From assembly GCA_030668825.1 (NCBI GenBank), contig DAOVET010000015.1:135-24134 (forward strand): a stretch of DNA of 24,000 nucleotides, read 5' to 3'. The position numbers and the translations under genes are program-made. This document shows, piece by piece, positions 4,101-21,895 of the stretch; the first letter of the stretch is position 1; every line of letters starts with the position of its first letter. The stretch comes from Candidatus Heimdallarchaeota archaeon (lineage in GTDB: Archaea; Asgardarchaeota; Heimdallarchaeia; Heimdallarchaeales; Heimdallarchaeaceae). The notes beneath the pieces were generated by a model. The model saw only the letters and a program-made list of their open reading frames with translations. It made no database searches and had not been told where the DNA came from.

Positions 4101-4332
4101 CTTTTAATGATGGAAGATCTTCCAATTGAATATTTAGAGCTTTGCTCAATCCCACTATTCTTTCCCATCTGTCCTCCATAATGTCTTTAGTTGATTGTAT
4201 TCTTGCTTGCTCTTTAGGACTTTGAGGGTCAACGATTATTTGTTCAAAGATATTAAGAGAAGATATCTTTGTCAATAGTGTATTTGTATTTTTGACTGGT
4301 ATCTGAACTTTTACTAGTTTAAACTTTGCCAT
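1129..4332 (-). CDS. atpI: A/V-type ATP synthase subunit I (a-subunit), unusually long, with a tandemly duplicated N-terminal cytoplasmic domain
   Basis: The C-terminal third is polytopic membrane sequence carrying the a-subunit signature ...ISNTLSFSRIMALLLVHAILS (conserved Arg) and FPFLFGIMFADIGHG. GGTGG lies 8-9 nt upstream of the ATG. At 1067 aa it is far longer than the ~650-700 aa typical of archaeal AtpI, because the soluble N-domain occurs twice (see findings). Confidence 0.85.
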   Translation of the reverse strand: MAKFKLVKVQIPVKNTNTLLTKISSLNIFEQIIVDPQSPKEQARIQSTKDIMEDRWERIVGLSKALNIQLEDLPSLKEDDLVFIKNHDEIIKGLDVFLEKYENQIIEKSSELQKLKKENRILSSLKQFQSNLDDEFSIDLLSSSSRTFTVLGEIPSEYKEIIRFYISEVTAGQMFFWSSPTDNSEKNVMICISLIDYKEQIGEILRENYFNETEFDLELLKSIEKIRETTRIEKLHSEVSQDIEKIEGDIRQLSTGLAEKTRYHLTLIKATHKTLTLEERGRTTSKNFTLWGWVASKNYSVLVENIDSLQIDSTIVILEDVPLSRKKERDIEQELLIKKLFDKEESKIDSYIPHPPHSGGGGEGFLFAKKALFVRLESPEDSSRQFISHIYSLNAIHPVKIGSLDENTLEKVNSLRQELSQYQSRVNRLLNMLKMKDTKEQNTEKYHIVDDYGHSKAFLENFLRENEEKIIKAFDSHEAILKKRDQVKLSLPFEEGLKEKGIDAVLLQDGFQTVTYLGVIPKSNLKSVKFFLKEVTDNNLIFWDSEPTSSSSNEKNILILSLKEYENSILRVLNEYSFQAIDYDLSLVERKVSLKDTLKEIEKELKESEEELQEIKDQVKYKLIACEELINVESNRLNTIELCQISEGKIVLWSWTSKTVLDQLNESKKDLPFEMEITENPDVPLVNPAITKQGKVFGAVRGIVGGIGQPNTKQVDPYSIVRFTFPFLFGIMFADIGHGILLSLLAGFLLYKKKKNKIEPDESITGYLYSGAELLLFCGLSATIFGFFFGSLLGDEHFIPELMHKAGINWIPIINPLHETKLILIVALMLGFLMIQLGILLKVYQNVRYGHGFASWGAPLSLSIIYVGIFTMLYNIIVGVNGIYWQAFHFTLKQLPSAFVYLVGLVPVLFVLEYLHAKSDGIMDAIDHIIALISNTLSFSRIMALLLVHAILSGLPFTLTGVDLVAGVSTFSGVFLDVAHIDLSHFAGGLIHGHYVSALSISWIWWVVGILLAVFIILPIEGLLSFLNTLRLHWVEWFSKFYSGDGKEFLPLKEKLVSINFVRQKGS

Positions 4333-4552
4333 TCATAAGCCACCGATACTCTAACTAATCACGATAGGAGATTTTGGGGAGATTTTAAAATCTTCCTCTC
4401 TGGCAGAATGGTCTATTAAAAAAATAGAATCAAACTTATTATCTGATAAGAGAGAACGAATAAACCAAGTTACTTTTCCATAGCCTGAAATAGCAAACTT
4501 CTTTCTAGTTATTATAAGCCTAGTAAAATAAAAAAAAGGAAAAAGAAATGGT

Positions 4553-4953
4553 TTATTTCTTTCTAAATCTTCGCAATACTTCCAATGCTGCTAATCCTAG
4601 GAAGGACAGAAACACTAATGCTGTAATACCTGTTTCAGATGGGAAATTAGTCACTAATACTGTATATCCCACATCCTCGCCATAACCAATTGCTACATCT
4701 AAATCATAGATGTATGGTTCAAGTGAATCATCGTAGCCAACTACTGAATCAGGGATTGTGACTGTAGCTGAAACACCAAGTCCACCAAGAATTTGATCAA
4801 CAATGATTTCACGTGGACACGCGTGACTTATAGCTTTGCGTAGATATTTTGCTGCTAAAGGAGTACCAAGAGGAGTTAGTTCACCAGTTTTCCAATCATT
4901 AGATTGTTTTTTATTAATTTGCGAGGAATAATGTTTATTGTAATTATTGACAT
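4553..4953 (-). pseudogene. Frameshift-interrupted small ORF encoding a hypothetical protein with a C-terminal transmembrane anchor
   Basis: A roughly 130-codon open frame (...GELTPLGTPLAAKYLRKAISHACPREIIVDQILGGLGVSATVTIPDS...FPSETGITALVFLSFLGLAALEVLRRFRKK*) has no ATG/GTG/TTG start near its 5' end; the only in-frame GTGs lie close to the 3' end. An ATG at 4953 (MSIITINIIPRKLIK...) is in another frame and joins it if one extra A is added to the A6 run (T6 on + strand, 4907-4912). Absent from the supplied ORF track for this reason. Confidence 0.35.
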
Positions 4954-5192
4954 GCTATGATTTGACAAAGTCGAAGTTCAAACATTAAAGGTGAATCTGT
5001 CGGATCCAGTAATAACCAGTAAACTAATTGTCTACTTCAAAGACTTGTATTCTAGTAAAAGATCAAGAAAAAATTATTGATCAATTTCTAACTTCTGAAA
5101 AAGAAGAGAAAAAGCTGCTAAGAGAAGATATTCTGATGAAATTTAGTAAACAATAGATTAAAATTCCAAAGATTTCCTCCCTAAATGAAAAA

Positions 5193-5579
5193 TTAAGGCC
5201 CCGATAATACTTCTATTGCTTCTGGAACATATCTTTTAATTACTTGCATAGCTAAACCTACATTATGCAAATCTCTACTAGCACCAATCAAAATATATTC
5301 ATCAGCACTTGCTAGTATTGTAAATCCTTCTTCACCACGAATTAAAACTTGTTCCAAATCTCCATGTGCTAGATTTCCACTTACCATTTTTCCAGTTGAT
5401 AATATTGCAGAAGAAACCGCACTCAAGAGATCTGGATCTGTCCCCTTTTCAGAGAAGAAAGCAATTTTTATTCCTTCTGCATTAACAACTGCTAAAGCTT
5501 CTAAATCACACCCTAACGAGATTTGTTTTAATATTCTTACCAATTGTTTTTTTTGTGATACTGATAAATCAATAGACAT
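5193..5579 (-). CDS. Roadblock/LC7 (MglB-like) domain protein
   Basis: 128 aa. The pattern LEALAVVNAEGIKIAFFSEKGTDPDLLSAVSSAILSTGKMVSGNLAHGDLEQVLIRGEEGFTILASADEYILIGASRD fits the Robl/LC7 alpha-beta-alpha fold consensus. Confidence 0.75.
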   Translation of the reverse strand: MSIDLSVSQKKQLVRILKQISLGCDLEALAVVNAEGIKIAFFSEKGTDPDLLSAVSSAILSTGKMVSGNLAHGDLEQVLIRGEEGFTILASADEYILIGASRDLHNVGLAMQVIKRYVPEAIEVLSGP

Positions 5580-9316: not shown

Positions 9317-10726
9317 GTGTTATGTTTGCCGGCAATATCTAGTTGTAGCTTTTGTAGTAGTCCAGCACAATACTATTGTAAGTCATGTAAGAGAAAACTT
9401 TGTACTGAACATATTCATATATCAAATACAGTATACTTTTGCTCAACTTGTGAAACTGAGAGCCTTGATTCAAAATGTCATAAATGTGGTTCAGCTACAG
9501 AATTTTCCAGAAATGAGCCTACTAATAGCTGTGAATGGTGTAGATCAATAGATGTGGAAGATGGACTTCTTTATCATCAACAACTTCCACATTTGATATT
9601 TTCTTCATTTACTCTGTTGAACAAGAAGCTTGCACAAGTGTGGGATCTTACTCAGAAATATCTTGAAATTGTTAAGAACGTCTTTGAAATGAGAAAAGCG
9701 AAAATTATGCTTTTTGGTGATGTGGAAGATGAAATTACTTTACTTAGAAGCAAAATTTCAATATTCATTGATCAACTTGTCAAATTTGAAAATGATACTT
9801 TTGCAATGGTTGATGAGAAACTACGTGCAATCGGATATATGCGATTTACAAACGTGGATAACATAGAAAGAGGGGAAGAAATTCTTAATTTGCTTCAAAA
9901 TAGATTGGATTTACTTGATACAACCATAAAGTCAAAGTTTAATGAGATGGATGAAGATTTTCAAACCCTTAATCAAAAAGTAGATTTTCTTGGTTTTCAA
10001 TTTCGTTTGTTAAGTAAGATTTATCATCTCCTACCTGAAGACAAAGAAGAACATCTAATTTCTATTCTTCCACGGATTTGGCTAAAGAAGAACACTAAAT
10101 TACCAAAGAAATATCTTGTTGTTCTGACTAGTAAGAATTTATACTTGCTCCGAGAAAAGGGTTTGTTTAATGTTAGATTAAAAACAAAAGAAACCATAAG
10201 CTTGTCGTATATTATAAACAAGCAATATATTTCCAGATTATTATCTCGCAACATGTTTCGCTTCAAAACCAGATTAGATTCATATTCATTTCTTGGAAGA
10301 AAGAAGAGCCTTGAACAATTTATGATTTATTTTGAAATCATCGAAAATTACATAGATTATTCAATTCATAAATCCTCAATAATTGAAGACCTCAAGTACT
10401 ATTCACTCACTATTAATGAATTAAAAACCAACATACAAAGAAATGTAAGTCACCTTCGTGCTTATTTGCTTAATAAACGTGAATTGAAACGCGAATTATA
10501 CTGGAGAGAAGGACAAGATGCGAGATTCAAGAAACTGTTTGAGCAACTACTAGCTGTAGAACGAAAGATACATCGATTAAATGAAACCAGAAGGTATGGT
10601 TCTCGAGGTACCAAAGGTATAGATGGATTATTAAGGAAACTAACCAGTGAACATCATAGGCTCAAACGACATTTAGATGATATTCAAAGAAAAAGTGAAG
10701 AATTTGATGACATGTGGGAACTTTGA
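9317..10726 (+). CDS. Hypothetical multi-zinc-finger / coiled-coil / PH(GRAM/GLUE)-like domain protein
   Basis: GTG start. The N-terminus has C-x2-C-x7-C-x2-C-x4-C-x2-H-x-H followed by three further CxxC pairs (aa 10-75). Aa about 90-245 and 350-469 look like coiled coil. Aa about 248-345 (KKYLVVLTSKNLYLLREKG...ISLSYI...NMFRFKTRLDSYSFLGRKKSLEQFMIYFEII) has the beta-sandwich-plus-C-helix pattern of PH-like domains. Function unknown. Confidence 0.6.
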   Translation: MLCLPAISSCSFCSSPAQYYCKSCKRKLCTEHIHISNTVYFCSTCETESLDSKCHKCGSATEFSRNEPTNSCEWCRSIDVEDGLLYHQQLPHLIFSSFTLLNKKLAQVWDLTQKYLEIVKNVFEMRKAKIMLFGDVEDEITLLRSKISIFIDQLVKFENDTFAMVDEKLRAIGYMRFTNVDNIERGEEILNLLQNRLDLLDTTIKSKFNEMDEDFQTLNQKVDFLGFQFRLLSKIYHLLPEDKEEHLISILPRIWLKKNTKLPKKYLVVLTSKNLYLLREKGLFNVRLKTKETISLSYIINKQYISRLLSRNMFRFKTRLDSYSFLGRKKSLEQFMIYFEIIENYIDYSIHKSSIIEDLKYYSLTINELKTNIQRNVSHLRAYLLNKRELKRELYWREGQDARFKKLFEQLLAVERKIHRLNETRRYGSRGTKGIDGLLRKLTSEHHRLKRHLDDIQRKSEEFDDMWEL

Positions 10727-11158: not shown

Positions 11159-11458
11159 TTAGAATACAAGTAGGATAGCTACTAGTAGACCATAAATAGC
11201 CACGGCTTCAATCAACACTATGAAGAGAAAAGCTTTTCCGAAAATTTCAGGTTTTTCCACAATAGCACCTATGGCTGCACTTCCTGCCATCGCCATTCCT
11301 ATGGCGGCTGCAGCTCCAGCTATACCAACTGCTAGAGCTGCAGCGATTGGGGTTAAATCTGGAGTTTGAGCTAAAGCTGTTTCTGAGGCAAGAATCACTA
11401 AACTTGTTATTATTGTCATAAATGCAAAATTTCTTTTAGATTTCTTTTGAAAACGCAT
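11159..11458 (-). CDS. atpK: A/V-type ATP synthase proteolipid subunit K (c-subunit)
   Basis: 99 aa. Gly/Ala-rich helix IAAALAVGIAGAAAAIGMAMAGSAAIGAIVEKPE, then a second helix FLFIVLIEAVAIYGLLVAILL with the ion-binding Glu. GGTG lies 8 nt upstream of the ATG. An extra hydrophobic N-terminal segment (MTIITSLVILASETALA) is present. Confidence 0.85.
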   Translation of the reverse strand: MRFQKKSKRNFAFMTIITSLVILASETALAQTPDLTPIAAALAVGIAGAAAAIGMAMAGSAAIGAIVEKPEIFGKAFLFIVLIEAVAIYGLLVAILLVF

Positions 11459-11619: not shown

Positions 11620-12234
11620 ATGTTCCGTGACTTTATGGGTTGGCTTTTGGGTACAAAGAAGAGTCCTCGTGACCACATAATTAATCTTCGATTAACTGTA
11701 AGAAGATTAGAAAGAGCACAAAGGAAACTTTCTCGAGATGAATCCAAGATGCAGTTGAAAATGAAACAAAACATCCAACGAGGAGATTTGGAATCTGCAA
11801 GATTATTTGCTACTGATATTGTACGCAACAGAAGATGGGAATTTGGTTATCAGAAACTAGTCTCGCGTATGAATGGTCTAATCTTTAAATTAGAACGAGC
11901 TGATACAGCAGCAAGCATGGCTGAAGAAATGCATGGTATTGCTTCTGCTTTACGAACAGCAAATGCTCAATTACAGATTCCAGATTTAGATAGAGTTATT
12001 CAAGATATGGAAAGTTCAATTGATGGAATCGAAGAGTCAACAGGAACAATTGAAGATGGTATTGACGATTTACTAATTGCTGATACTGATCCAGCTGAAG
12101 TCGATAGATTAATTGAACAAACAGCTGCTGAATTAGGTGTTTCCACTCAAGCTGGATTACCAACAGTTGGTGTAGTGCAAACAGATGATTTAGAGGACGA
12201 AATCCAGAAATTAAGAAGAAGAGAAGAGGATTAA
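11620..12234 (+). CDS. ESCRT-III subunit, Vps2/Vps24/Vps46 (CHMP1-3)-like, with C-terminal MIM1-type helix
   Basis: 204 aa. The basic N-terminal hairpin ...RRLERAQRKLSRDESKMQLKMKQNIQRGDLESARLFATDIVRNRR parallels CHMP2 ...ELDRERQKLE..EKKIIADIKKMAKQGQMDAVRIMAKDLVRTRR. Acidic C-terminal half. The terminal DDLEDEIQKLRRRE parallels the CHMP2 tail DLEERLKNLRRD (the MIM1 consensus as I recall it is (D/E)xxLxxRLxxL(K/R)). Confidence 0.9.
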   Translation: MFRDFMGWLLGTKKSPRDHIINLRLTVRRLERAQRKLSRDESKMQLKMKQNIQRGDLESARLFATDIVRNRRWEFGYQKLVSRMNGLIFKLERADTAASMAEEMHGIASALRTANAQLQIPDLDRVIQDMESSIDGIEESTGTIEDGIDDLLIADTDPAEVDRLIEQTAAELGVSTQAGLPTVGVVQTDDLEDEIQKLRRREED

Positions 12235-12247
12235 AAGGTGAATAAAA

Positions 12248-12901
12248 ATGGTTAAGAATTGGCTTTTTGGAAAAAAAAGAAAAGAAGATGCTGATGCATT
12301 ATCTACACTCAAAGGACAACAAAACAGATTACAAGCAGAAGCTAGAAATCTTGAAAGGCAATCAGATGAACAGAAAATCTTAGCCTCAAAAATGCTCAAA
12401 GCTGGTAACAAAGCTGGAGCAAGACAAGCTCTTAAAAGAAGAGCTGTTTTCATGAAAAGGCTGAATACAGTTCATAACACAGGGATGAATTTACAAGCTC
12501 AGATAGATAGTATTCAAACAGCTACTTCAACCGCAGAAACTGTAAAAGCTATGGAACTTGGTACTAAAGTTGTTGGGGAGAAAATCAAAAGCGTTTCTCC
12601 TGAGAGAACAGAACGTGTTATGGATTCCGTAATGGAACAGAGAGATCAAATTGAAATGATGACTGAAGCTCTATCTGATCCAAGCTTATCTGAAGGTATT
12701 CTAGATTTTGAAGATGATGCAGCTATTGATGAGCAGTTAGCTCAATTAGAAGCTGAGATGGATTTAGGTACAACAACAAGCTTACCTGATGTTAGTGGTC
12801 TTCCTTCAACTCCTGTTGGAACAGGTGACAAAGAAGAAGATACATCAGAGCTTGAAGCTGAGCTTGAGGGATTAAAGAAGAAAATGAAGGAAGATAATTA
12901 G
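12248..12901 (+). CDS. ESCRT-III subunit, Vps20/Vps32/Vps60 (Snf7/CHMP4)-like
   Basis: 217 aa. KAGNKAGARQALKRRAVFMKRLNTVHNTGMNLQAQIDSIQTATSTAETVKAMELG parallels CHMP4 KNKRAALQALKRKKRYEKQLAQIDGTLSTIEFQREALENANTNTEVLKNMGYA. Acidic C-terminus. AAGGTGA lies 7 nt upstream of the ATG. Confidence 0.9.
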   Translation: MVKNWLFGKKRKEDADALSTLKGQQNRLQAEARNLERQSDEQKILASKMLKAGNKAGARQALKRRAVFMKRLNTVHNTGMNLQAQIDSIQTATSTAETVKAMELGTKVVGEKIKSVSPERTERVMDSVMEQRDQIEMMTEALSDPSLSEGILDFEDDAAIDEQLAQLEAEMDLGTTTSLPDVSGLPSTPVGTGDKEEDTSELEAELEGLKKKMKEDN

Positions 12902-12908
12902 TTCTTCC

Positions 12909-12929
12909 TTTTTTTGTATTTTTATTTTT
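12909..12929 (+). terminator. Oligo-T tract cluster (T7, T5, T5) after the ESCRT-III pair
   Basis: CCTTTTTTTGTATTTTTATTTTTG immediately follows the 12901 stop. Oligo-T runs are typical archaeal termination signals. The sequence suggests the ESCRT-III genes and vps4-vps25 are separate transcription units. Confidence 0.35.
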
Positions 12930-12990
12930 GTAAGTTCTTAAAATCCATACTATGAAAATTATCAATGTGTTATGAAACAAAATGAAACAT

Positions 12991-12999
12991 TTTATATTA
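12991..12999 (+). promoter_or_regulatory. Candidate TATA box (TTTATATTA) upstream of vps4
   Basis: TATA-like element about 28-37 nt upstream of the candidate starts (GTG 13027 or GTG 13036). Pattern only. Confidence 0.3.
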
Positions 13000-13026
13000 G
13001 ATAAATGGAATAAATAGATAGAGGTT

Positions 13027-14178
13027 GTGAATCACGTGTCTGCTCAAGGATTAATAGATCATGCAAGAGATTTTGCAGTCAAAGCTTATTCCTTTGATAA
13101 AGAAAAAAACTACAGTGAAGCTATTCCACACTATTTAGATGCTGCTGAAGCTTTAATGAAAGCCATAAGATTTGAAAGAAACCCTCAAGTTGCTCGTTCT
13201 CTCAAGAAGAAAGCCAATATGTACATTAGTAGAGCAAGGGAACTAAGGGAACTTCTAGAGAAGAGAAAAGAAAGGAAATCCACTGCAGGAAGTGATGAGG
13301 AGGAAAAACTAGAAAATGCTATATCTGATATAATCGTTACAGAGAAACCAAATATTACTTTAAAAGATATAGCAGGTCTAGAAACCGCAAAGCAAACCTT
13401 GAGAGAAGCTATTGTTTTACCTCTGATGCGACCTGATTTATTCTCTGGAGCAAGAAAACCTTGGAAAGGTATTTTGCTTTTTGGTCCTCCTGGTTGTGGT
13501 AAAACTCTTTTAGCAAAAGCAACTGCAGCTGAAGTAGAAGCAACTTTCTTCAATGTTAGTGCATCTTCAATCATTTCAAAATGGCTTGGTGAATCAGAGA
13601 AATTGGTTAAACAGCTTTTCGAATTAGCAGATGAAAAACAACCCAGTATTATTTTTATTGATGAAGTTGATGCTTTAGCCGGCGCCAGAGGTGGAGAACA
13701 TGATGCAATGCGTAGAGTTAAAACTGAGCTCTTAACATCAATGGACGGATTATCGAGTTCCGAAACTGACAGAATAGTTACTGTAGGTGCTACTAATATG
13801 CCTGAATCTATAGACGGAGCATTCAGAAGAAGATTCGAGAGAAGAATTTACATTCCTTTACCAGATTTACCAGCTCGTTCAGCTATTTTTGTTTTCAATA
13901 CCAGGGGTGTTGAACTAGCTGAAGATGCTGATTTCGAAGTTCTAGCAGAAATTACAGAAGGTTATTCAGGTTCTGATATAGCAATGGTATGTAGAGAAGC
14001 AATCATGACTCCAATCAGAGAACTTGATATGGCTGGAGCTATTGAAGATACTTCAGTAGCTGCCCGGTCAGTAACCCAAGATGATTTTCTTGAAGCAATT
14101 GAATCAATTAACCCCTCTGTAAGTGATGATGAAATAGAAAAATACGATAACTGGAATGAAGAATTCGGCAGCGCATGA
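13027..14178 (+). CDS. vps4: Vps4-like AAA+ ATPase with N-terminal MIT domain
   Basis: 383 aa. MIT-like three-helix N-terminus (AVKAYSFDKEKNYSEAIPHYLDAAEALMKAIRFE...ANMYISRARELRE). Walker A GPPGCGKT, pore loop KWLGESEK, Walker B IIFIDEVD, second region of homology GATNMPESIDGAFRRRFERRIYIPLP. An alternative GTG start at 13036 has better spacing to GAGGT (13021-13025). Confidence 0.95.
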   Translation: MNHVSAQGLIDHARDFAVKAYSFDKEKNYSEAIPHYLDAAEALMKAIRFERNPQVARSLKKKANMYISRARELRELLEKRKERKSTAGSDEEEKLENAISDIIVTEKPNITLKDIAGLETAKQTLREAIVLPLMRPDLFSGARKPWKGILLFGPPGCGKTLLAKATAAEVEATFFNVSASSIISKWLGESEKLVKQLFELADEKQPSIIFIDEVDALAGARGGEHDAMRRVKTELLTSMDGLSSSETDRIVTVGATNMPESIDGAFRRRFERRIYIPLPDLPARSAIFVFNTRGVELAEDADFEVLAEITEGYSGSDIAMVCREAIMTPIRELDMAGAIEDTSVAARSVTQDDFLEAIESINPSVSDDEIEKYDNWNEEFGSA

Positions 14179-14951
14179 TTCTAGAGGTTAAATCCATGTC
14201 TACCACTGAGAAGAAGAAGCCCAAGAAAGAGAGATCATCTGAAATAGATTTAAAAAAATTAAAAGATGAAAAAGAGATTTCAGATGAGAAATTAAAACTA
14301 ATTGAAGCCAGTATTAAAGGTTTGGAGATTACAGCTGAAGAATTGAAAGCTACTATGCCTGTTGATGCTGTTTTTATGAAAGAAGATCTCTCTAAAGATC
14401 AAAGGGCTATGCTTGAACTAGAATTTGAGGAAGAGCTTCCAAAATGGGTGAAGAGACCTTGGATGTATATCAAACCTAAGAAAACTGATCAAATTGAATC
14501 ATGGCTCCAGAGTTGGTCTGCGATAGTATTGGACTACTCCCGTATTTTTGTGATTCACATAATTAATATCAACGATTTGAGAAGTGGTCACCCCTTCAAT
14601 AACAAAAGTTTAGGTAAGAGATTAACCCTTGCACAGGTAAGAAGTATCATTGATCATTTAGTTCAACAGGATATTGCTCGTTGGTTAGATGAAAAAACAA
14701 AAACAAGGGCTCGCATTTATTGGAAATCAAATGAAGAATGGGCAGATGCACTATTAGACTTCATGCTAGATACTGGAAGAGTGGTTGAAATACACTCACT
14801 TTACGATTTAACTCAGTTGGAACAAAATTGGGGGAATTTGCCTGCTGATGATCTTATTATTGTGTGCGAAATGCTAGTAGAACGTAAAGTTGCTCGTTGG
14901 TTAAACAAAGAAAAAACAATAATTCAGTTTGAAGCTGATAAAGTGTTTTAG
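14175..14951 (+). CDS. ESCRT-II subunit Vps25-like (tandem winged-helix), with Lys/Glu-rich N-terminal extension
   Basis: The C-terminal ~170 aa WLQSWSAIVLDYSRIF...HPFNNKSLGKRLTLAQVRSIIDHLVQQDIARWLDEKTKTRARIYWKSNEEWADALLDFMLDTGRVVEIHSLYDL...LIIVCEMLVERKVARWLNKEKTIIQF aligns by eye with human VPS25 (LAAWCSLVLSFCRLH...PLFNNVKLQRKLPVESIQIVLEELRKKGNLEWLDKSKSSFLIMWRRPEEWGKLIYQWV...VFTLYEL). The ATG overlaps the vps4 stop (ATGA). An alternative ATG at 14196 is preceded by GAGGT. Confidence 0.85.
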   Translation: MILEVKSMSTTEKKKPKKERSSEIDLKKLKDEKEISDEKLKLIEASIKGLEITAEELKATMPVDAVFMKEDLSKDQRAMLELEFEEELPKWVKRPWMYIKPKKTDQIESWLQSWSAIVLDYSRIFVIHIININDLRSGHPFNNKSLGKRLTLAQVRSIIDHLVQQDIARWLDEKTKTRARIYWKSNEEWADALLDFMLDTGRVVEIHSLYDLTQLEQNWGNLPADDLIIVCEMLVERKVARWLNKEKTIIQFEADKVF

Positions 14952-14952
14952 A

Positions 14953-14961
14953 CTTTTTTTT
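14953..14961 (+). terminator. Oligo-T tract in the 15-bp gap between convergent vps25 and the EAP30 gene
   Basis: TAGACTTTTTTTTCTG lies directly after the vps25 stop. Oligo-T termination signal pattern only. Confidence 0.3.
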
Positions 14962-14966
14962 CTGAA

Positions 14967-15704
14967 TTATAGTCCCATTAAACCTGGAAACCAGAATTTT
15001 ACTCCTTCAGAATAGCTACGGTCAACTCTAGCTATGCTATTTTCTTCAAAGAATTTTAAACATCTATCTATTCGTTCTTCAGTCCAACTTGTTCTCATGA
15101 GTAAATCTTCCTTTGTAACAAAACCAACTCTGGATGCATAATTTAGAATAACATCATGGTCTGGACTAAACTCAACAGGAACAAATTCAACAATCTTCAA
15201 TCCTGAATCTAACACTCTATATGGTGGGATTAATTGAGTATTGATTAATTTCTCCAAGGATCGATACATATCATCAATTGAAACCATCCTCCCAGGACGA
15301 GTTTTATTTAGCTGTGTGAATAGTTCTCCGATTGCCATAATTCCACCGTTTTCTGATATCATCTGTTGCCCTATTTCAAGAATTTCATTAGCTAATACAT
15401 CAAAGAAGCCCTTTCCAGTAAGTTTATCTTTGAGAGTTGGAGTTTCTTTCCAGTCAAAACGTCCAATTTCGGTGGGTAATCCTAATTCTTCTCGCAGATT
15501 TGCTAATTTATCATAATAATCTTTATTTTCAGAGATCTTATCACCGTATTTTTTCTCAAACTTTTTCAGTTGTTTTTTGACTTCACTAATATTATTTACC
15601 ATCTGTTCTAATTCTTTAATCATTAGCTCTGCCGCTTTTACTTGAAAAGCTGACTTAATTTTGATCTTTTTCTCTATATCTCTTAAACCCACTTCTATCT
15701 CCAA
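14967..15704 (-). CDS. ESCRT-II subunit Vps22/Vps36-like (EAP30 domain)
   Basis: 245 aa. N-terminal coiled-coil helix, then FFDVLANEILEIGQQMISENGGIMAIGELFTQLNKTRPGRMVSIDDMYRSLEKL...LKIVEFVPVEFSPDHDVILNYASRVGFVTKEDLLMRTSWTEERIDRCLKFFEENSIARVD...KFWFPGL. This parallels human EAP30/VPS22 ([33 protein letters not shown]...VSQDDLIRAIKKL...YLIQSVPAELNMDHTVVLQLAEKNGYVTVSEIKASLKWETERARQVLEHLLKEGLAWLD...HYWLPALF). Confidence 0.85.
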   Translation of the reverse strand: MEIEVGLRDIEKKIKIKSAFQVKAAELMIKELEQMVNNISEVKKQLKKFEKKYGDKISENKDYYDKLANLREELGLPTEIGRFDWKETPTLKDKLTGKGFFDVLANEILEIGQQMISENGGIMAIGELFTQLNKTRPGRMVSIDDMYRSLEKLINTQLIPPYRVLDSGLKIVEFVPVEFSPDHDVILNYASRVGFVTKEDLLMRTSWTEERIDRCLKFFEENSIARVDRSYSEGVKFWFPGLMGL

Positions 15705-15761
15705 CCTTGTTATTGTCTAGGACTTATTTATATCTTCTCAAATTAATTGATTAAACAATTA

Positions 15762-16076
15762 TTATACAGTGTTTGATAATTTTAAAAGCCATTTCTTTAT
15801 CTTTTCAGTTAAAGAGCTACTCTCCCTTGGTGAAAGAAAAGCTGCAAGTTTGTTTTTATATTTGTTAAAATATGAATTATAGACATTCATCATTTCTTCA
15901 TGGATTTGCTTACCTTCTTCTCCTAAATTCTTGATTTCGTATGAAATATCTTCCAATTCCTCAAGAATATAGCCCATATCTATCTTTATCTCTATCATGT
16001 TGATTAATTCAAACATTTCTTTTCTAATGTTAACAAATATCTCGTTAATAGAGCTAGTTCTTTCCAAGTAATTCAC
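15762..16076 (-). CDS. Small helical hypothetical protein between the ESCRT-I-like and ESCRT-II-like genes
   Basis: 104-aa ORF (GTG start), Glu/Lys/Asn-rich and predicted helical. Co-oriented with and 64 nt downstream of the UEV-Vps28 gene. No recognisable motif. Confidence 0.5.
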   Translation of the reverse strand: MNYLERTSSINEIFVNIRKEMFELINMIEIKIDMGYILEELEDISYEIKNLGEEGKQIHEEMMNVYNSYFNKYKNKLAAFLSPRESSSLTEKIKKWLLKLSNTV

Positions 16077-16140
16077 CTAGTAACTTATATTAAAGAATGG
16101 AAAGAAAGGAATCTAGAACGTTTCAAGTCTTTTATTTACA

Positions 16141-17589
16141 TTAAAGTTCTTTCAATACTCTTCGAAAGTCATTTAACCAACGAGCTGCTTGAAATTCTAA
16201 TTTTTCGCAATCTTCTTCTTTAATGATCTCCTGCGGCTTATATTTTCCTATAATTTCACGCCAATTATTCATATCTCCAATAACCCAATGGTCTTTTGGT
16301 ATTGAAGGAAATGTTTTCAGAATGTGAATCATTTCTTCGATGTCTGCTATTATGAGATCTGCTCTAGCTACTGATCTTAATCTAGTTAAATCAATAAGTT
16401 CAATCGCAGATGAAACGAAATCAGCTGTTTTAGATGGGATTTTCTTGAGTGTATCAAATGGAATTGAGCTGGTATCTGCAGTTTCTTTCCCTTCAACAAC
16501 CATGAGTTGTTTGATTCCCTTTTGATATCTATTATTTAGATTCTCTCGTTTCACAAAATCATCTAAATTAAATCCTACTTTTTCTAATTCTAATCTTGTT
16601 TTGAAAATTCCTCTAATAAGCGCACGAAGTTGCTTTCTATAAGCAATCTGCTCAATTTCACTTTTTTCGTAACTGCTAACTAGATTGTCTAAAGTTGCAA
16701 TTGAAGCAAACAGATCAGCTTCCAAATTCAATATTTTTTCTTCTGCTTTTGTCATGTCACCACTTGAGCTACTTTTAACTTGAGTGAGTTGTTTCTCAGC
16801 TATAAAACCTTTTTTAGCATATCTTTTATGTAATTTGAGGTAATCAATATTAGTCATGTCACCATCCTCAAATTTTTCCTGTATTATTTCTAGAGTATCT
16901 TGGACAGATAATGATTCAGCTCTCAAATCGTCTTCTAATGATATAGAAATCTCTTTAGTTCTACTTTGTACAGCTATTCCGCCTTCTTTCAATAGAGCTT
17001 CTCTTTCTTTTTCTATATCTCTGGAAACATGCTCTATTTTATCTTGATAATTGACAATTGTTTTATCGATAGATCGTCTTTCTTCCTCAATTCTTGGATC
17101 TATACTTGCGAAAGAAGCTTGAGGTATTGTCTTCACAGGAATTGTTGCTCTAGGTAATGTTGAAAATCTTTGTTCCCCTTTTGGTTTCTTAGTCTTTGTC
17201 TTGTATGGTTTAGCAGGAACATTGATGAAAAGTTGTTTTATATCAATCATAACCTGATAAATATGATACCTAATTTCCCATTCTGCAAGAAGACGCATAC
17301 TTAATGTGCCATCTTCATCCACATTAGGGTGATTTACTTTAGGAGTAATATCAACAAATGGAGGTATTTCAGGGAAACCATCCTGAATGTAAATGTTGGC
17401 AAAAATTGGTATCTCAGTACCTTCTATTGTTCCAACATAGCCTTTCCATTGTTTCAAATTACCTCTAACAGGTTCGAAATTTATTTGTTTATCGAATACT
17501 AATTGCATTTCATTTGCAAGATGGAAATCGTCTGTGGAAATTTTGTTCACCTTTCTAATTATATCTCTAAATAACTTGATACCAATCAA
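16141..17589 (-). CDS. ESCRT-I-like fusion protein: N-terminal UEV (catalytically inactive E2 fold) + Pro/Lys linker + coiled-coil stalk + C-terminal Vps28-like domains
   Basis: Aa 40-125 NLKQWKGYVGTIEGTEIPIFANIYIQDGFPEIPPFVDITPKVNHPNVDEDGTLSMRLLAEWE match the UBC core (YPFKPPKV..HPNI...G.ICLDIL), with HPN kept but the active-site Cys replaced by Ser97. Aa 285-482 (LFASIATLDNLVSSYEKSEI...; ADFVSSAIELIDLTRLRSVARADLIIADIEEMIHILKTFPSIPKDHWVIGDMNNWREIIG...CEKLEFQAARWLNDFRRVL) parallel human VPS28 (LFAVVKTMQALEKAYIKD...; IADVVSLFITVMDKLRLEIRAMDEIQPDLRELMETMHRMSHLPPDFEGRQTVSQWLQTLSG...VRQMLFDLESAYNAFNRFL). Confidence 0.8.
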   Translation of the reverse strand: MIGIKLFRDIIRKVNKISTDDFHLANEMQLVFDKQINFEPVRGNLKQWKGYVGTIEGTEIPIFANIYIQDGFPEIPPFVDITPKVNHPNVDEDGTLSMRLLAEWEIRYHIYQVMIDIKQLFINVPAKPYKTKTKKPKGEQRFSTLPRATIPVKTIPQASFASIDPRIEEERRSIDKTIVNYQDKIEHVSRDIEKEREALLKEGGIAVQSRTKEISISLEDDLRAESLSVQDTLEIIQEKFEDGDMTNIDYLKLHKRYAKKGFIAEKQLTQVKSSSSGDMTKAEEKILNLEADLFASIATLDNLVSSYEKSEIEQIAYRKQLRALIRGIFKTRLELEKVGFNLDDFVKRENLNNRYQKGIKQLMVVEGKETADTSSIPFDTLKKIPSKTADFVSSAIELIDLTRLRSVARADLIIADIEEMIHILKTFPSIPKDHWVIGDMNNWREIIGKYKPQEIIKEEDCEKLEFQAARWLNDFRRVLKEL

Positions 17590-17630
17590 AGTTTAAAAAA
17601 TGTTGCATTTGAAAAGCGAAAAATGACTAA

Positions 17631-18635
17631 TTACTCAGATAATTGTAAAACTATTTTGATTGGTTGGGCTAAATTCTTGTCTAGAACGAATACAATAGCC
17701 TTTTTAGAATCCAGCGCATCTTCAAGTAATGATTCAACCTTTAACAGTTTTCCTTGCACCATTAAGTCTGGTTTTTCTAACCCATAAGTCAACATCAATC
17801 TCATTCTGAGCTCTTTTACAGTTTCAGTTGGAAGCGCCACAAACTCGATTTGTTCTAATTTATACATCTCTCCACAGGCTGGACAGTCCTTGGTTTTTTC
17901 TAGTTCTATAATTGTAGTAGCATTATGAAGACCATCATAGAAGAGATAATTTTCCAATTTTTCACCTAGTTCCAGAATTAACTTTATTGTTTCCTGAGCC
18001 ATTATCCCCCCAATAATTGATGATAATGTAGCAACAGCTGGCAATGGTGGCTCTACATCTATTTCTTTCCTCTCCTTTTTCCTTTCTTCCCCAAATGGAG
18101 AGCATGCTTGAGCTAACTCTTCGTCTGGTACCAAAGGCTGGCATTCGAAACAAGCTGTTTCATACGGAATAATTACTTGTGCATTACCCAAGAAAGCAAA
18201 CATACCCCCCATAACAAGTGGTTTTTTTACTCGAATAGCCATCGAATTGATCCATCTTCTTCCAATAAAAGTATCTAAACAAGCCACTATAACATCTGCT
18301 TGCTCATAAACTGATACTGAAATATTCTCCATCTTTTTATGATAAAAATCAATCTCGATTTTGGGGTTTATTTCTTTCAATCTTTGTACAGCTGTTTCTG
18401 ATTTTGATTTACCAACATCCTCATCTTTGAACAATAATTGTCGATTTAGATTCGAAACTTCAATTGTATCAAAATCAATAATCGTAAGTTTACCTATTCC
18501 TGAAGAGACAAGTACAGTTGCTGCATAGCTCCCTATTGCTCCAACCCCCACTAGAACAACAGAACTATTGTCAAGTTTTAGTTGATCCCATCCTGGAATA
18601 AGTTGTTGTCTTGAGTAGCGCTCATCTCCATCCAT
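17631..18635 (-). CDS. E1-like ubiquitin-activating enzyme (ThiF/MoeB/UBA fold) with C-terminal extension
   Basis: 334 aa. YSRQ...VVLVGVGAIGSYAATVLVSSGIGKLTIIDFDTIEVSNLNRQLLF (Rossmann GxGxxG plus NLNRQ). Zn-site pairs CFEC (162-165) and CPAC (251-254). Cys178 lies in a charged crossover-like loop. About 75 extra C-terminal residues. Sits immediately downstream of the ubiquitin-like gene. Confidence 0.9.
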   Translation of the reverse strand: MDGDERYSRQQLIPGWDQLKLDNSSVVLVGVGAIGSYAATVLVSSGIGKLTIIDFDTIEVSNLNRQLLFKDEDVGKSKSETAVQRLKEINPKIEIDFYHKKMENISVSVYEQADVIVACLDTFIGRRWINSMAIRVKKPLVMGGMFAFLGNAQVIIPYETACFECQPLVPDEELAQACSPFGEERKKERKEIDVEPPLPAVATLSSIIGGIMAQETIKLILELGEKLENYLFYDGLHNATTIIELEKTKDCPACGEMYKLEQIEFVALPTETVKELRMRLMLTYGLEKPDLMVQGKLLKVESLLEDALDSKKAIVFVLDKNLAQPIKIVLQLSE

Positions 18636-18774
18636 TTAATGAACTCCTTGAATGACTCACATAGAAAGAACTGATATAAGTTTCTTTTTACTATCACACT
18701 GAAAACAACGAGAAAATCTATAAAAAGAGCTTTTTATGAAAGAAAATTAAATTAAAAGAAGTGGTTAGATAAAA

Positions 18775-19011
18775 CTAAAGTCCACCTTTAGTTCTAGCAA
18801 TAAGATAGCATTTATCGCCATCCATCATTCCTGTTTGTTTTAGTATCTCACTGTCATCAAGTTGCTTACCATGGAAAACTATAATGACGGTGTTCGCAGG
18901 AATTTTCTTCTTTTTAGCAACTTCTCTCTTTAATTGAGCAACTGTTGAATGTGGATCAACATCTAAATCTATTTTTCCTCCACCAATTGCTGTTACTACA
19001 GTTATTCTCAC
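18775..19011 (-). CDS. Ubiquitin-like modifier (beta-grasp), C-terminus ...RTKGG-L
   Basis: 78 aa (GTG start). MRITVVTAIGGGKIDLDVDPHSTVAQLKREVAKKKKIPANTVIIVFHGKQLDDSEILKQTGMMDGDKCYLIARTKGGL aligns along its full length with ubiquitin ([76 protein letters not shown]). This includes the GKQL (K48-equivalent) motif and a di-glycine followed by one extra residue. Confidence 0.85.
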   Translation of the reverse strand: MRITVVTAIGGGKIDLDVDPHSTVAQLKREVAKKKKIPANTVIIVFHGKQLDDSEILKQTGMMDGDKCYLIARTKGGL

Positions 19012-19120: not shown

Positions 19121-19519
19121 TTAATAGGTTGTCTTCTTTTCCCTTTCTCCCTTTCTTTTTATTGTTATAGAGGAAGGAATCCCCTCTATCTCTCTTTCTA
19201 GCTTTTTGACACCTAATCTCGATATCTGTTTTCCCTCAAGAAAACCAATCTTAATCATATATAACACGTTTTTGAAAATTGTTTCTGCAGTTGGTTTTTT
19301 AGATAGATTCTCATAGAGATTGATCCAGTAATTATAAGCATCTGGGCCCAAAAAATATTCCATTAACGCCAATTTATCTTTTTCTTCTATACTTGCTGGA
19401 GATTCTTCTGCCTCTTTTAACTCTTCCATACGCTGTTTTCTTTGTTCAGCAATTTGCATTAATTCTTTTGCTTTTCTTTGCTTAATTTTCTCCAGTTCAT
19501 CATCAGTTGTCATTGGCAA
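19121..19519 (-). CDS. PDCD5/TFAR19-like dsDNA-binding-domain protein
   Basis: 132 aa. The charged N-terminal helix ELEKIKQRKAKELMQIAEQRKQR and the core LSKKPTAETIFKNVLYMIKIGFLEGKQISRLGVKKLEREI...ITIKRKG parallel PDCD5 ([39 protein letters not shown]...VKFNRRK). Start is TTG 19519 or ATG 19513. Confidence 0.7.
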   Translation of the reverse strand: MPMTTDDELEKIKQRKAKELMQIAEQRKQRMEELKEAEESPASIEEKDKLALMEYFLGPDAYNYWINLYENLSKKPTAETIFKNVLYMIKIGFLEGKQISRLGVKKLEREIEGIPSSITIKRKGEREKKTTY

Positions 19520-19580: not shown

Positions 19581-20275
19581 CTAAGATTTGTTTATAGGTA
19601 AATGTTTCTTAACAGTTAGGAATCTAGATAAAACATTAAATTTTTCTGCATATTTTACTCCACACTTCATTCCATTGGATCGCCGATTAACATCTAACCA
19701 ATCATCAACTTGTTGCCAATCATAAAAATCACCATAAAGTTTGGCTACTTCCTTAACTTTCTCAAAAGAGGAGGTTATATCTATGTAGATTGTTGGCAAA
19801 GGTGATACTTCCTCATGATACATGAAGATTGGAATATGAAGTGGAGGTCTATAAGGATCTAGCGGCTCTGTTATCTTTGGAATACGCGCATATGTGATTG
19901 CATCATAGAGTATTTGAGCAGTTCCTCTGTGATTCGGATGTCTTGTGTTCATTGACCATGTTACTACTGCATCTGGTTTGACCTCAGCTATCACTTTAGC
20001 CATTTTCAGTGCACTTTCTCTTGTAGCTCTCACGGATGTATCACCATATCCTAGAAAAAGAGTTTCACAACCAATTATCTTCCCAACATCTTTCCCTTGT
20101 TTTTCTCTTATTTCTTTCACTTCAGAAAAAGACATATCGTTAAAATGTGAAGCCATTTCACCACTAGCACAACTTTATCTCCCTTCTCAACATGATTAAC
20201 TAAAGTACCTATGCACCCAACTTCATCATCAGGGTGTGCTACACATGCTAAAATTGTTTTTCTTCCAGTATTCAT
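19581..20275 (-). pseudogene. PIG-L/LmbE-family N-acetylglucosaminyl deacetylase, interrupted by a 1-nt frameshift
   Basis: A 52-codon ORF from ATG 20275 encodes the family N-terminus MNTGRKTILACVAHPDDEVGCIGTLVNHVEKGDKVVLVV (AHPDDE metal motif) and then runs out of frame to a stop at 20117. The 191-aa track ORF (19581-20156) carries the rest (..LGYGDTSV...AEVKPDAVVTWSMNTRHPNHRGTAQ..) in the -1 frame. One added nucleotide between 20120 and 20174 (for example in the A3 run at 20156-20158) restores a single ORF of about 230 aa. Confidence 0.7.
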
Positions 20276-20423
20276 TGAGATATCTTACCTTTTGAGTTTT
20301 TAAATTTCTTCTTTTATTAATTTTAATTTTTATCACTTTGAATTAAGTCTCTTGCCAAAAAATACTTTAAATAATCAAAACAAAACATAACAGACAAGAA
20401 CGCTTTGTCTTGAGGCCATCTTA

Positions 20424-21045: not shown

Positions 21046-21582
21046 TTATTTTTTTGATTGATTGACTAATAATTGTGCAATATTAGTGAAAGCTTCCTCT
21101 ACTTGATTTCCAGTTAATGCACTTGTTCTGATGCTAAAATGGCTTTTTATTTTTGTGTGAACTGCATCATATTCTTTTTTTGAAACAGCAATTTGATTTT
21201 TTAAATCTTCTTTATTACCAATAAGAACTTTGATTACATCTTTACCACAGTTATCTACAAATTCTTTTTCCCACTTTTGAACATCTTTGAGAGTTGCAGC
21301 TCTTGTTAAATCATAAACTAATAATGCTGCCCTTGCCCCTTTATAGAATGTGTGTCGGATGAAACGAAACCTTTCTTGCCCTGCTAAATCCCAGATAGAA
21401 AGAGCAACTCTTGTTCCATCTTCTAAATCTATGTGTTTTTCAGACGGTTCCATGCCGATAGTCATAAGGTAGGAACTATCAAATCTATCGTGAACAAATC
21501 GTTGTACTAAACTTGTTTTACCAACAGCTGCGGATCCTAATAATAAGATTTTGTAGTTGTAATCTGGTTGAATTTTACTCAT
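21046..21582 (-). CDS. Ras-superfamily small GTPase (Rab/Ras-like), no C-terminal prenylation cysteines
   Basis: 178 aa. G1 GSAAVGKTS, switch I YLMTIGME, G3 WDLAGQERF, G4 GNKEDL, G5 TSALTG. The C-terminus ...LLVNQSKK lacks a CAAX or CC motif. Confidence 0.9.
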   Translation of the reverse strand: MSKIQPDYNYKILLLGSAAVGKTSLVQRFVHDRFDSSYLMTIGMEPSEKHIDLEDGTRVALSIWDLAGQERFRFIRHTFYKGARAALLVYDLTRAATLKDVQKWEKEFVDNCGKDVIKVLIGNKEDLKNQIAVSKKEYDAVHTKIKSHFSIRTSALTGNQVEEAFTNIAQLLVNQSKK

Positions 21583-21583
21583 T

Positions 21584-21895
21584 TTACTCCTCTTCTAGTA
21601 GTTTAGCTATTCTTTCCAAATCCTCTATGAGACTATCTAAATAAAACTTTTCAAAACTACCCTCAGCTCTGTCAATAGTACTTAGAGAAATACAGAGATC
21701 TTCAATGGCTTCTTTGTGTTCTTTTTCTTGTTGTGTCGGTAAATAGCTCTTTATTTTTCTTAGAACTTTTTTTGCCATTCCTGAAGTGAGTTTGCGATTA
21801 ATTGTACCTTCTTGATAAGCTTGTACTGTAGAGCGCATCCATAAAGCCACGTTATACAAATTGTCAATCTCATCGGGAGGGGAAATAGTGGTCAT
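21584..21895 (-). CDS. Hypothetical helical protein, translationally coupled upstream partner of the small GTPase
   Basis: 103-aa ORF ending 1 nt before the GTPase ATG. Helical, acidic C-terminus (LIEDLERIAKLLEEE). No recognisable family. Confidence 0.55.
   Translation of the reverse strand: MTTISPPDEIDNLYNVALWMRSTVQAYQEGTINRKLTSGMAKKVLRKIKSYLPTQQEKEHKEAIEDLCISLSTIDRAEGSFEKFYLDSLIEDLERIAKLLEEE

Follow-up and report, generated by a model that had tools for sequence, protein, structure and literature searches.

A nine-gene ubiquitin and ESCRT cluster

We analysed a 24,000-nucleotide stretch of DNA from a Candidatus Heimdallarchaeota archaeon (contig DAOVET010000015.1, assembly GCA_030668825.1), hereafter the window. 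[quoted passage not shown] The ORFs have the coordinates, strands and lengths that an earlier note on this DNA had claimed, and Pfam profile searches recovered all of the domains that it had assigned (Snf7, MIT/AAA/Vps4_C, Vps25, EAP30, VPS28, UEV, ThiF and ubiquitin). Pfam gathering thresholds were passed by eight of the nine, the exception being an ORF of 104 amino acids (aa). Chance cannot produce a nine-gene cluster of this kind. Its features are listed below.

11620–12234, + strand: ESCRT-IIIA, 204 aa, Vps2/24/46 (CHMP1/2/3) type; Pfam Snf7, E = 5.8e-18
12248–12901, + strand: ESCRT-IIIB, 217 aa, Vps20/32/60 (Snf7/CHMP4) type; Pfam Snf7, E = 8.3e-23
13027–14178, + strand: Vps4 AAA+ ATPase, 383 aa; Pfam MIT (1.5e-11), AAA (2.5e-42), AAA_lid_3, Vps4_C (1.6e-9)
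14175–14951, + strand: Vps25 (ESCRT-II), 258 aa or 251 aa; Pfam ESCRT-II (3.5e-21)
14952–14966, no strand: convergent intergenic gap of 15 bp, read from the sequence, with T8 run ACTTTTTTTTCTGAA
14967–15704, − strand: Vps22 (ESCRT-II, EAP30 family), 245 aa; Pfam EAP30 (2e-20)
15762–16076, − strand: small conserved protein, 104 aa; no Pfam family
16141–17589, − strand: UEV-Vps23-Vps28 fusion (ESCRT-I), 482 aa; Pfam UQ_con (1.9e-10), UEV (1.2e-3), Vps23_core (4.6e-5), VPS28 (9.3e-10)
17631–18635, − strand: E1-like enzyme, 334 aa; Pfam ThiF (3.1e-64)
18775–19011, − strand: ubiquitin, 78 aa; Pfam ubiquitin (1.7e-14)

From this layout we infer two convergent operons. On the plus strand, vps4 and vps25 share an ATGA overlap (14175–14178), and vps25 meets the minus-strand vps22 across the 15-bp gap, whose T8 run probably acts as the terminator of the plus-strand operon. 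All ORFs are continuous, with no introns, and GTG and TTG starts are used; G+C content is uniform across the window (31–38%). The flanks are archaeal, as the earlier note had held, with A-type ATPase subunits I, C and c and ApgM.

The cluster is conserved among Heimdallarchaeaceae

Six contigs (L001–L006), all labelled Candidatus Heimdallarchaeota, emerged when species-representative genomes were searched for the fusion protein. The fusion is 94–96% identical in five of them and 87% identical in the sixth, the AB_125 contig MEHH01000089 (L006). When 17 window proteins were compared with these contigs by tblastn, the neighbourhood, including both flanks, proved collinear in all six at 84–100% identity, except for the c subunit of the A-type ATPase (68–72% in two contigs). 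The six contigs, from metagenome-assembled genomes (MAGs), stem from different studies and were independently assembled. Ubiquitin, E1 and the fusion are adjacent in L001–L003 and also in three further contigs, L011–L013.

Named homologues of the 104-aa ORF and of Vps28 are mostly assigned to 'Candidatus Heimdallarchaeaceae', and the host is an Asgard archaeon of the Heimdallarchaeaceae (AB_125 group). The earlier note had spoken of Asgard archaea of the Lokiarchaeota type; the assignment to Asgard archaea stands, whereas the Lokiarchaeota label gives way to Heimdallarchaeaceae on the strength of the contig matches and of the UEV-Vps28 fusion, which is found only in certain Heimdallarchaeia and is co-located with ubiquitin there (Lu et al., preprint 10.1101/2023.07.25.550441).

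The AB_125 locus (HeimAB125_14040, 14050, 14060 and 14070 with ESCRT-III and Vps4; ubiquitin HeimAB125_14240) shares order and orientation with the window from the fusion gene through ESCRT-IIIA into the left flank, at a protein identity of 84–98%, and 100% for ubiquitin. Both loci have the fusion, a single Vps22, an N-terminally extended Vps25 and the ESCRT-III A/B pair. AB_125 represents a separate population, at 2–16% amino-acid divergence, and has a 17-nt vps4–vps25 gap where the window has the ATGA overlap. Its contig stops just upstream of the fusion gene, whereas the window and L001–L003 directly show ubiquitin and E1 physically linked to ESCRT-I. Among Asgard ESCRT loci, that of AB_125 is one of the best studied, and the window locus, as its close orthologue, is already known. 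The two match nearly residue for residue, and as biochemical and structural work on the AB_125 proteins exists, the window locus confirms known biology. The details that the earlier note had flagged as non-canonical, namely the fusion, the N-terminal extension of Vps25 and the single Vps22/36-like protein, all turned out to be published traits of the lineage (PMC9192718, PMC10936438).

The ESCRT-III pair and Vps4

Both ESCRT-III ORFs matched Pfam Snf7 (65.6 bits for ESCRT-IIIA against a cut-off of 27.3, and 81.3 bits for ESCRT-IIIB). All ten PDB sequence matches of ESCRT-IIIA are CHMP1B (2.7e-15), CHMP2A, CHMP1A, Vps24 or CHMP3, whereas ESCRT-IIIB matched PDB entries 9FTL/9FTM ('Heimdallarchaeota archaeon AB_125 ESCRT-IIIB', E = 3.6e-129) and then yeast Snf7 (3e-9). 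Judged by these matches, the two paralogues sit one on each side of the eukaryotic A/B split, in agreement with the claim of the earlier note that each major eukaryotic clade is represented. A published phylogeny likewise places AB_125 ESCRT-IIIA in the CHMP1–3/IST1 clade and ESCRT-IIIB in the CHMP4–7 clade with full (100%) bootstrap support (PMC11804906). The AB_125 ESCRT-IIIA is 96% identical to that of the window, and across L001–L006 the identity of ESCRT-IIIA is 96–99.5% by tblastn. By inspection, the C-terminal ...DDLEDEIQKLRRREED of ESCRT-IIIA looks like a MIM1-type helix; candidate MIM-type motifs are ...DDLEDEIQKLRR in ESCRT-IIIA and LPDVSGLPSTPV...ELEAELEGLKKK in ESCRT-IIIB, in which the Pro-rich stretch LPDVSGLPSTPV is followed by an acidic/basic C-terminal helix. 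For the AB_125 proteins, the ESCRT-IIIB filament has been solved, and polymer assembly and membrane remodelling by the ESCRT-IIIs were observed in vitro (Souza et al. 2025, PMC11804906). The same study proposed that ESCRT-IIIB and then ESCRT-IIIA remodel the membrane before disassembly by Vps4, the last step being a proposal only.

The window Vps4 comprises a MIT domain (residues 11–75), an AAA domain (149–278), a lid and Vps4_C (339–381) according to Pfam. Its Walker A (GPPGCGKT, 153–160) and Walker B (IIFIDE, 208–213) motifs are intact, as are a Vps4-type pore loop (KWLGE, 185–189) and an arginine cluster (RRRF, 267–270). An identical Vps4 is encoded on contig JADCTQ010000391 of GCA_022096915.1. 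The protein scored 329 bits against yeast Vps4, whose chains have 437 aa against its 383, and 319 bits against the NCBIfam CdvC equivalog NF041006, for which the cut-off is 650. The comparison with CdvC uses this cut-off, as the top 60 PDB matches are filled by p97/Cdc48 entries; by that measure the window Vps4 is not a CdvC.

The crenarchaeal CdvABC system shares with the window an ESCRT-III-family polymer and a MIT-AAA ATPase. Unlike that system, the window has no CdvA, its ESCRT-IIIs are of the eukaryotic A and B types, and ESCRT-I, ESCRT-II and ubiquitin are present. The earlier note was therefore right to place the machinery beyond Cdv, and the Vps4 score gives no sign of the placement inside the CdvB/CdvC clades that the note had named as evidence to the contrary.

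Ubiquitin and its E1

The 78-aa protein matched Pfam ubiquitin (PF00240) with 53.8 bits against a cut-off of 25.4, and it also matched Rad60-SLD but neither ThiS nor MoaD. Twenty-five of 76 residues are identical to human ubiquitin, and the K48-equivalent GKQL is kept. The C-terminus reads ...KGGL, with GG at 76–77 followed by L78, so that one residue needs to be removed before activation. Residues 1–77 are identical to those of HeimAB125_14240, the ubiquitin used in published binding assays.

The E1 combines a ThiF fold (residues 10–252) with about 80 further C-terminal residues, and carries the nucleotide-binding glycine motif GVGAIG (30–35) as well as candidate cysteines in CFEC (162–165), in CPAC (251–254) and at 178. 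Among PDB sequences it comes closest to UBA3 (3.8e-35) and to the Uba1 active adenylation domain (3.3e-33), with ThiF and MoeB ranking behind, and it fell below the NCBIfam cut-offs for MoeB, ThiF and UbaA (the E1 of the SAMP system). Residues 255–334 (window 17634–17873, − strand) gave no Pfam family and no PDB sequence match. Hydrophobic residues alternate along this segment, which may hint at a ubiquitin-fold domain of the β-grasp kind, comparable to the one by which eukaryotic E1s recruit E2.

The ESCRT-I fusion and ESCRT-II

Within the fusion, Pfam delineated UQ_con/UEV at 35–128, Vps23_core at 221–264 and VPS28 at 291–479; the Vps23_core match, to the putative Vps23 stalk and steadiness box, stays under its cut-off. 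The UQ_con match reached 40.9 bits, and VPS28 (PF03997) matched with 39 bits against a cut-off of 24.5 over model positions 2–188 of 188. In an alignment with E2 enzymes the UEV keeps the HPN motif (87–89) and has Ser at the catalytic Cys position; indeed, the sole cysteine of the 482-aa protein is C461, with none in residues 1–460. The window ORF opens with a TTG codon at 17589, and the annotated AB_125 start lies 13–16 codons downstream. The AB_125 orthologue in L006, HeimAB125_14070 (87% identical), has been characterized as a UEV-Vps23-Vps28 fusion that has no catalytic cysteine, forms dimers and binds ubiquitin of heimdallarchaeal origin (Hatano et al. 2022, PMC9192718), and the published AlphaFold2 (AF2) model of this orthologue superimposes on the Tsg101 headpiece (PMC9192718).

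For ESCRT-II, Vps22 matched PF04157 with 73.9 bits (cut-off 26.8) over profile positions 1–218 of 219 and is 92% identical to HeimAB125_14050, the AB_125 copy in L006, which forms a homodimer (PMC9192718). Vps25 matched PF05871 with 76.3 bits (cut-off 27) over residues 98–217, its first ~95 residues being a K/E-rich extension, and is 88–96% identical in L001–L006 by tblastn. Its true start may be the ATG at 14196, giving 251 aa, because AB_125 and contig L016 carry a 251-aa Vps25 after a 17-nt gap. The AB_125 protein, HeimAB125_14040, was modelled without its first ~80 residues (PMC9192718). Yeast two-hybrid assays detected contacts of ESCRT-I with Vps22, of Vps25 with ESCRT-IIIB, of Vps4 with ESCRT-III and of ESCRT-IIIA with ESCRT-IIIB, and the Vps25–ESCRT-IIIB contact was seen in Asgard systems including AB_125 (PMC9192718).

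The arrangement of the window follows the typical Asgard layout, in which vps25 goes with vps4 and ESCRT-III, and vps22 with vps23 and vps28 (Makarova et al. 2024, PMC10936438). Lokiarchaeial and Helarchaeial clusters share this split between a vps25 side and a vps22 side, as well as the ESCRT-I/-II/-III, Vps4 and ubiquitin-system gene set. They differ in encoding Vps23 and Vps28 by two genes and in having a steadiness-box protein that stands by itself (PMC9192718), whereas in the window the two are fused and the small protein is modelled as a four-helix bundle, not a hairpin.

A proposed ubiquitin-read ESCRT pathway and its alternatives

Protein identities, key motifs, synteny and orthology to AB_125 were read directly from the window and its relatives. 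On this basis we consider it highly probable that the cluster is the ubiquitin–ESCRT locus of a Heimdallarchaeaceae archaeon (AB_125 group), organized as two convergent operons and working as a ubiquitin-read ESCRT-I/II/III/Vps4 pathway. In such a pathway, the one-residue tail after the GG of ubiquitin would be trimmed and E1 would adenylate ubiquitin, which E2 and E3 enzymes encoded elsewhere would attach to substrates. The cysteine-less UEV of the dimeric ESCRT-I fusion would bind the ubiquitin mark, and the Vps28 part of the fusion would contact a Vps22 homodimer carrying Vps25. Vps25 would then nucleate Snf7-like ESCRT-IIIB filaments on the membrane; these would recruit the CHMP1/2/3-like ESCRT-IIIA, imposing higher curvature. 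Finally, the MIT domain of Vps4 would bind the C-terminal tails of ESCRT-III, and disassembly of the polymer would drive constriction and scission. UEV–ubiquitin binding, Vps22 dimerisation, the two-hybrid contacts and remodelling by ESCRT-IIIB and then ESCRT-IIIA are literature results from orthologues 87–100% identical, and would apply to the window proteins by orthology. The cellular process served may be vesicle budding, sorting, repair or division.

The eukaryotic ESCRT pathway has homologues of the UEV, the Vps23 core, Vps28, Vps22, Vps25, the A and B types of ESCRT-III, the MIT-AAA ATPase Vps4, ubiquitin and E1, with the same presumed order of action. The window differs from it in several respects: ESCRT-0, Vps36 with its GLUE domain, Vps37 and Mvb12 are absent from the window genes; Vps23 and Vps28 form one polypeptide; and a Vps22 homodimer would replace the Vps22–Vps36 heterodimer. 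There are two ESCRT-III paralogues only, the genes stand in operons, and the E1 is small and single-domain.

Five points weigh against the proposed pathway. First, none of the scanned ORFs of the 24-kb window encodes an E2, a RING E3 or a JAB/deubiquitinase, so the locus alone cannot complete ubiquitylation; the only UQ_con match in the window is the cysteine-less UEV of the fusion, and AB_125 has two catalytic E2s, which are encoded far from the cluster by genes 07740 and 09840 (PMC9192718). The claim of the earlier note that every layer of the pathway is encoded thus holds for ESCRT-I, -II and -III, Vps4, ubiquitin and E1, but fails for E2, RING E3, deubiquitinase, ESCRT-0, Vps36 and Vps37. 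Second, the Vps23_core match of the fusion (PF09454) reached 23.8 bits, under the gathering cut-off of 26.8. Third, the vps4–vps25 overlap is replaced by a 17-nt gap followed by a 251-aa Vps25 in AB_125 (L006) and L016. Fourth, the convergent junction is broken in L011 and L012 by a ~6.7-kb insertion between vps22 and vps25. The overlap and the 15-bp gap, present in the window as the earlier note had described them, are therefore not kept in all relatives; the two operons are each conserved, and their abutment is not essential. Fifth, every statement on function is carried over from orthologues that were assayed in vitro or in yeast.

Among other explanations, the one that fares best accepts the same machinery but gives it cell division or abscission as its main job, as with Cdv in Sulfolobales, instead of cargo sorting or budding, with ubiquitin regulating the turnover of ESCRT-I. 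It draws on the established role of ESCRT-III and Vps4 in driving division in TACK archaea (discussed in PMC10936438), on the finding that in Helarchaeia an Asgard E1/E2/E3 cascade attaches ubiquitin to the steadiness box of UEV-Vps23 itself (10.1101/2023.07.25.550441), and on the fact that no cargo is known. We regard it as unlikely, given that ESCRT-I, ESCRT-II and a ubiquitin-binding UEV are present, CdvA is absent and Vps4 lies far under the CdvC equivalog cut-off. Moreover, it touches cellular function only and is compatible with the ubiquitin-read pathway.

Far less probable is the idea that the ubiquitin-like protein and E1 pair up as MoaD/ThiS and MoeB do, in a system of the sulfur-carrier or SAMP type, and lie beside the ESCRT genes by chance. 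The single-domain ThiF/MoeB fold of the E1 with its CxxC zinc motifs would suit such a pair, as would the lack of an adjacent E2 or E3 gene. However, the Pfam matches of the 78-aa protein, the proximity of the E1 to UBA3 and Uba1 and its failure at the MoeB, ThiF and UbaA cut-offs all speak for a ubiquitin system; an identical ubiquitin binds the UEV encoded by the neighbouring gene (PMC9192718), and the ubiquitin, E1 and fusion genes stay adjacent in L001–L003 and L011–L013. A chimera made in assembly, or archaeal DNA joined to contaminating eukaryotic DNA, which the earlier note had named as a way to refute it and which has nothing in its favour beyond the eukaryote-like domain content, is refuted by the gene order and both flanks being the same in the six MAG contigs from different studies and in further contigs, and by the uniform G+C, continuous ORFs, overlapping genes and GTG/TTG starts.

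A conserved small protein between vps28 and vps22

The 104-aa ORF is the orthologue of HeimAB125_14060 (OLS31937), which is annotated as 'hypothetical protein'. Searches of Pfam and NCBIfam gave nothing meaningful for it or its distant relatives. It is a real gene. The family comprises 41 homologue clusters at 90% identity, all of about 100 aa; a set of 1.8 billion proteins contains 13 representatives of it at 50% identity, and an alignment of 21 sequences contains 23 invariant columns. Nearly all named homologues come from MAGs of Heimdallarchaeota/Heimdallarchaeaceae, with one labelled Thorarchaeota. The position between vps28 and vps22 is kept in L007–L013. In L007–L010, from a more distant lineage, UEV-Vps23 (256 aa) and Vps28 (202 aa) have a gene each and the genes for ESCRT-III lie elsewhere; a 98-aa homologue is nevertheless found between vps28 and vps22. 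Neither HeimAB125_14060 nor OLS31937 is mentioned in the main text or supplements of Hatano et al. (PMC9192718) or in the supplements of PMC10936438, and we found no experimental study of the protein in the literature.

The AF2 model of the 104-aa protein is a four-helix bundle with a mean predicted local distance difference test (pLDDT) score of 90.5 and a predicted template-modelling (pTM) score of 0.81. A Foldseek search of 350,542 PDB chains ranked chains A and B of 2J9W first and second (probability 0.97–0.98, template-modelling score 0.67–0.70, 97–99 columns); the E-value of 0.26 is not significant alone, and generic and designed helical bundles rank next. Entry 2J9W, the Vps28 C-terminal domain, comes from an 'ESCRT-I-II link' study. 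A first hhalign comparison of the family with full-length Asgard Vps28 gave no signal (Prob 0.2%). With distant members included in the profile (effective number of sequences, Neff, 3.6), alignment to the last 108 residues of Vps28 spanned 95 columns end to end with a score of 25.7 (P = 5e-4). Control scores were 11.7±2.4 for column shuffles and 14.1±2.7 for shuffles of seven-column blocks, one of 200 in each set reaching 25.

Some Asgard genomes carry a separate gene for a Vps28 C-terminal domain besides a full vps28 (Makarova et al. 2024, PMC10936438). Like these, the 104-aa ORF is a small helical-bundle gene beside a full vps28 in an ESCRT-I/II operon, and it may belong to the family meant there; the Pfam VPS28 profile missed it, and its profile similarity is weak. 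We read the protein as probably a free-standing unit similar to the C-terminal domain of Vps28 that would act where ESCRT-I meets ESCRT-II. Its fold and gene context are shown, whereas the homology is weakly supported and the function deduced. More tentatively, and with less than even confidence, we propose an uncharacterised subunit or regulator of this junction, one that would be a separately encoded paralogue of the Vps28 C-terminal domain. Such a protein could offer a second dock for the Vps22 homodimer, making up for the asymmetry otherwise given by the missing Vps36 and Vps37, or it could compete with the C-terminal domain of the fusion and so gate the hand-over from ESCRT-I to ESCRT-II.

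We also considered a free-standing steadiness box, as in Lokiarchaeota, and rejected it, as the model is a four-helix bundle and not a hairpin; no homologue attributed to Lokiarchaeota turned up either. Separately, in L004 (JAGLOH010000321.1, a 2.9-kb contig), the fusion is 95% identical to that of the window, and within 2131–2905 the small ORF is only 57% and Vps22 only 81% identical. This drop suggests a recombination breakpoint or a chimeric contig.

A candidate outlying component and the flanking genes

About 0.9 kb from ESCRT-IIIA, past the c-subunit gene and a 126-aa ORF, lies a further gene of possible relevance:

9317–10726, + strand: 469-aa protein, possible outlying component; AF2 model, Foldseek matches to PH-domain proteins

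The protein has three Cys-rich zinc-ribbon motifs with conserved Cys pairs. Its AF2 model (pLDDT 79) consists, in order, of N-terminal β-hairpin zinc ribbons, long coiled-coil helices, a PH-like domain of seven strands and a helix (247–343) and a C-terminal helical hairpin, and the top Foldseek matches were all PH-domain-containing proteins (E = 5e-6). In architecture, this order of zinc ribbons, coiled coil, PH domain and C-terminal hairpin is that of Znr_CC_PH_SB (asCOG cog.011556), a putative Asgard-specific ESCRT-I component (Makarova et al., PMC10936438); the AB_125 accessions do not occur in the supplements of that paper. In L014 and L015, from Candidatus Heimdallarchaeum aukensis and another relative, the homologues keep the left-flank neighbours and have no ESCRT gene within 10 kb. 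Because adjacency to ESCRT genes is lost in these two, we downgraded the protein as a module member, and with low confidence it may be an outlier of the module.

Among the products of the flanking genes are subunits C/AC39, I and c of an A-type ATPase, ApgM, EamA, an aminotransferase, Roadblock/LC7, a PIG-L deacetylase and a GTPase of the Ras family. The ATPase genes are scattered: those for subunits I (1129–4332, − strand) and C lie at the left end, and that for the c/K proteolipid is isolated from them by 7 kb and neighbours the ESCRT cluster (11159–11458, − strand). Subunit I is unusually long at 1067 aa (1042 aa in the H. aukensis homologue), and its Pfam match begins at residue 386. Between the subunit I and Roadblock genes, 860 bp (4333–5192) contain no ORF of at least 50 aa; scans for tRNAs and for Rfam families were empty here, as they were over the whole window. 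Genes with a eukaryotic signature also occur in the flanks and are conserved in L001, L003 and L011: a Ras/Rab-like small GTPase (21046–21895, − strand; Pfam Ras, 3.4e-46), preceded by a conserved 103-aa ORF without known family, and a separate Roadblock/LC7 gene (5193–5579, − strand).

Just upstream of ubiquitin, a 132-aa ORF (19121–19519, − strand) encodes a divergent PDCD5/dsDNA_bind-like protein, with an NCBIfam PRK04239 match (E = 4.4e-6) below the cut-off. The ORF shares 40% identity with a PF01984 gene convergent with vps22 in L007, so a PDCD5-like gene abuts the ESCRT-I/II operon in two different arrangements. In the adjoining PIG-L gene (19581–20156, − strand; region 20080–20300), 13 bp are deleted by comparison with L001 and L003, and what would be an ORF of 235 aa is broken into pieces of 52 and 191 aa. 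This is either a pseudogene or an assembly error. The ~6.7-kb insertion of L011 and L012, which belong to a related Heimdallarchaeaceae lineage, lies at about 10.1–17.1 kb and encodes an S8 peptidase, a NosD/beta-helix protein and proteins without assigned function.

Implications

Ubiquitin-coupled ESCRT machinery in archaeal relatives of eukaryotes has been established since 2015–2017. To this the window adds another high-quality copy, with ubiquitin and E1 linked to ESCRT-I on one contig. It also adds a conserved operon gene, that of the 104-aa protein, as a modest lead, and the 469-aa protein as a candidate outlying ESCRT-I-like component. The system matters for eukaryogenesis, as ubiquitin-coupled ESCRT-I/-II/-III machinery existed in archaeal relatives of eukaryotes.

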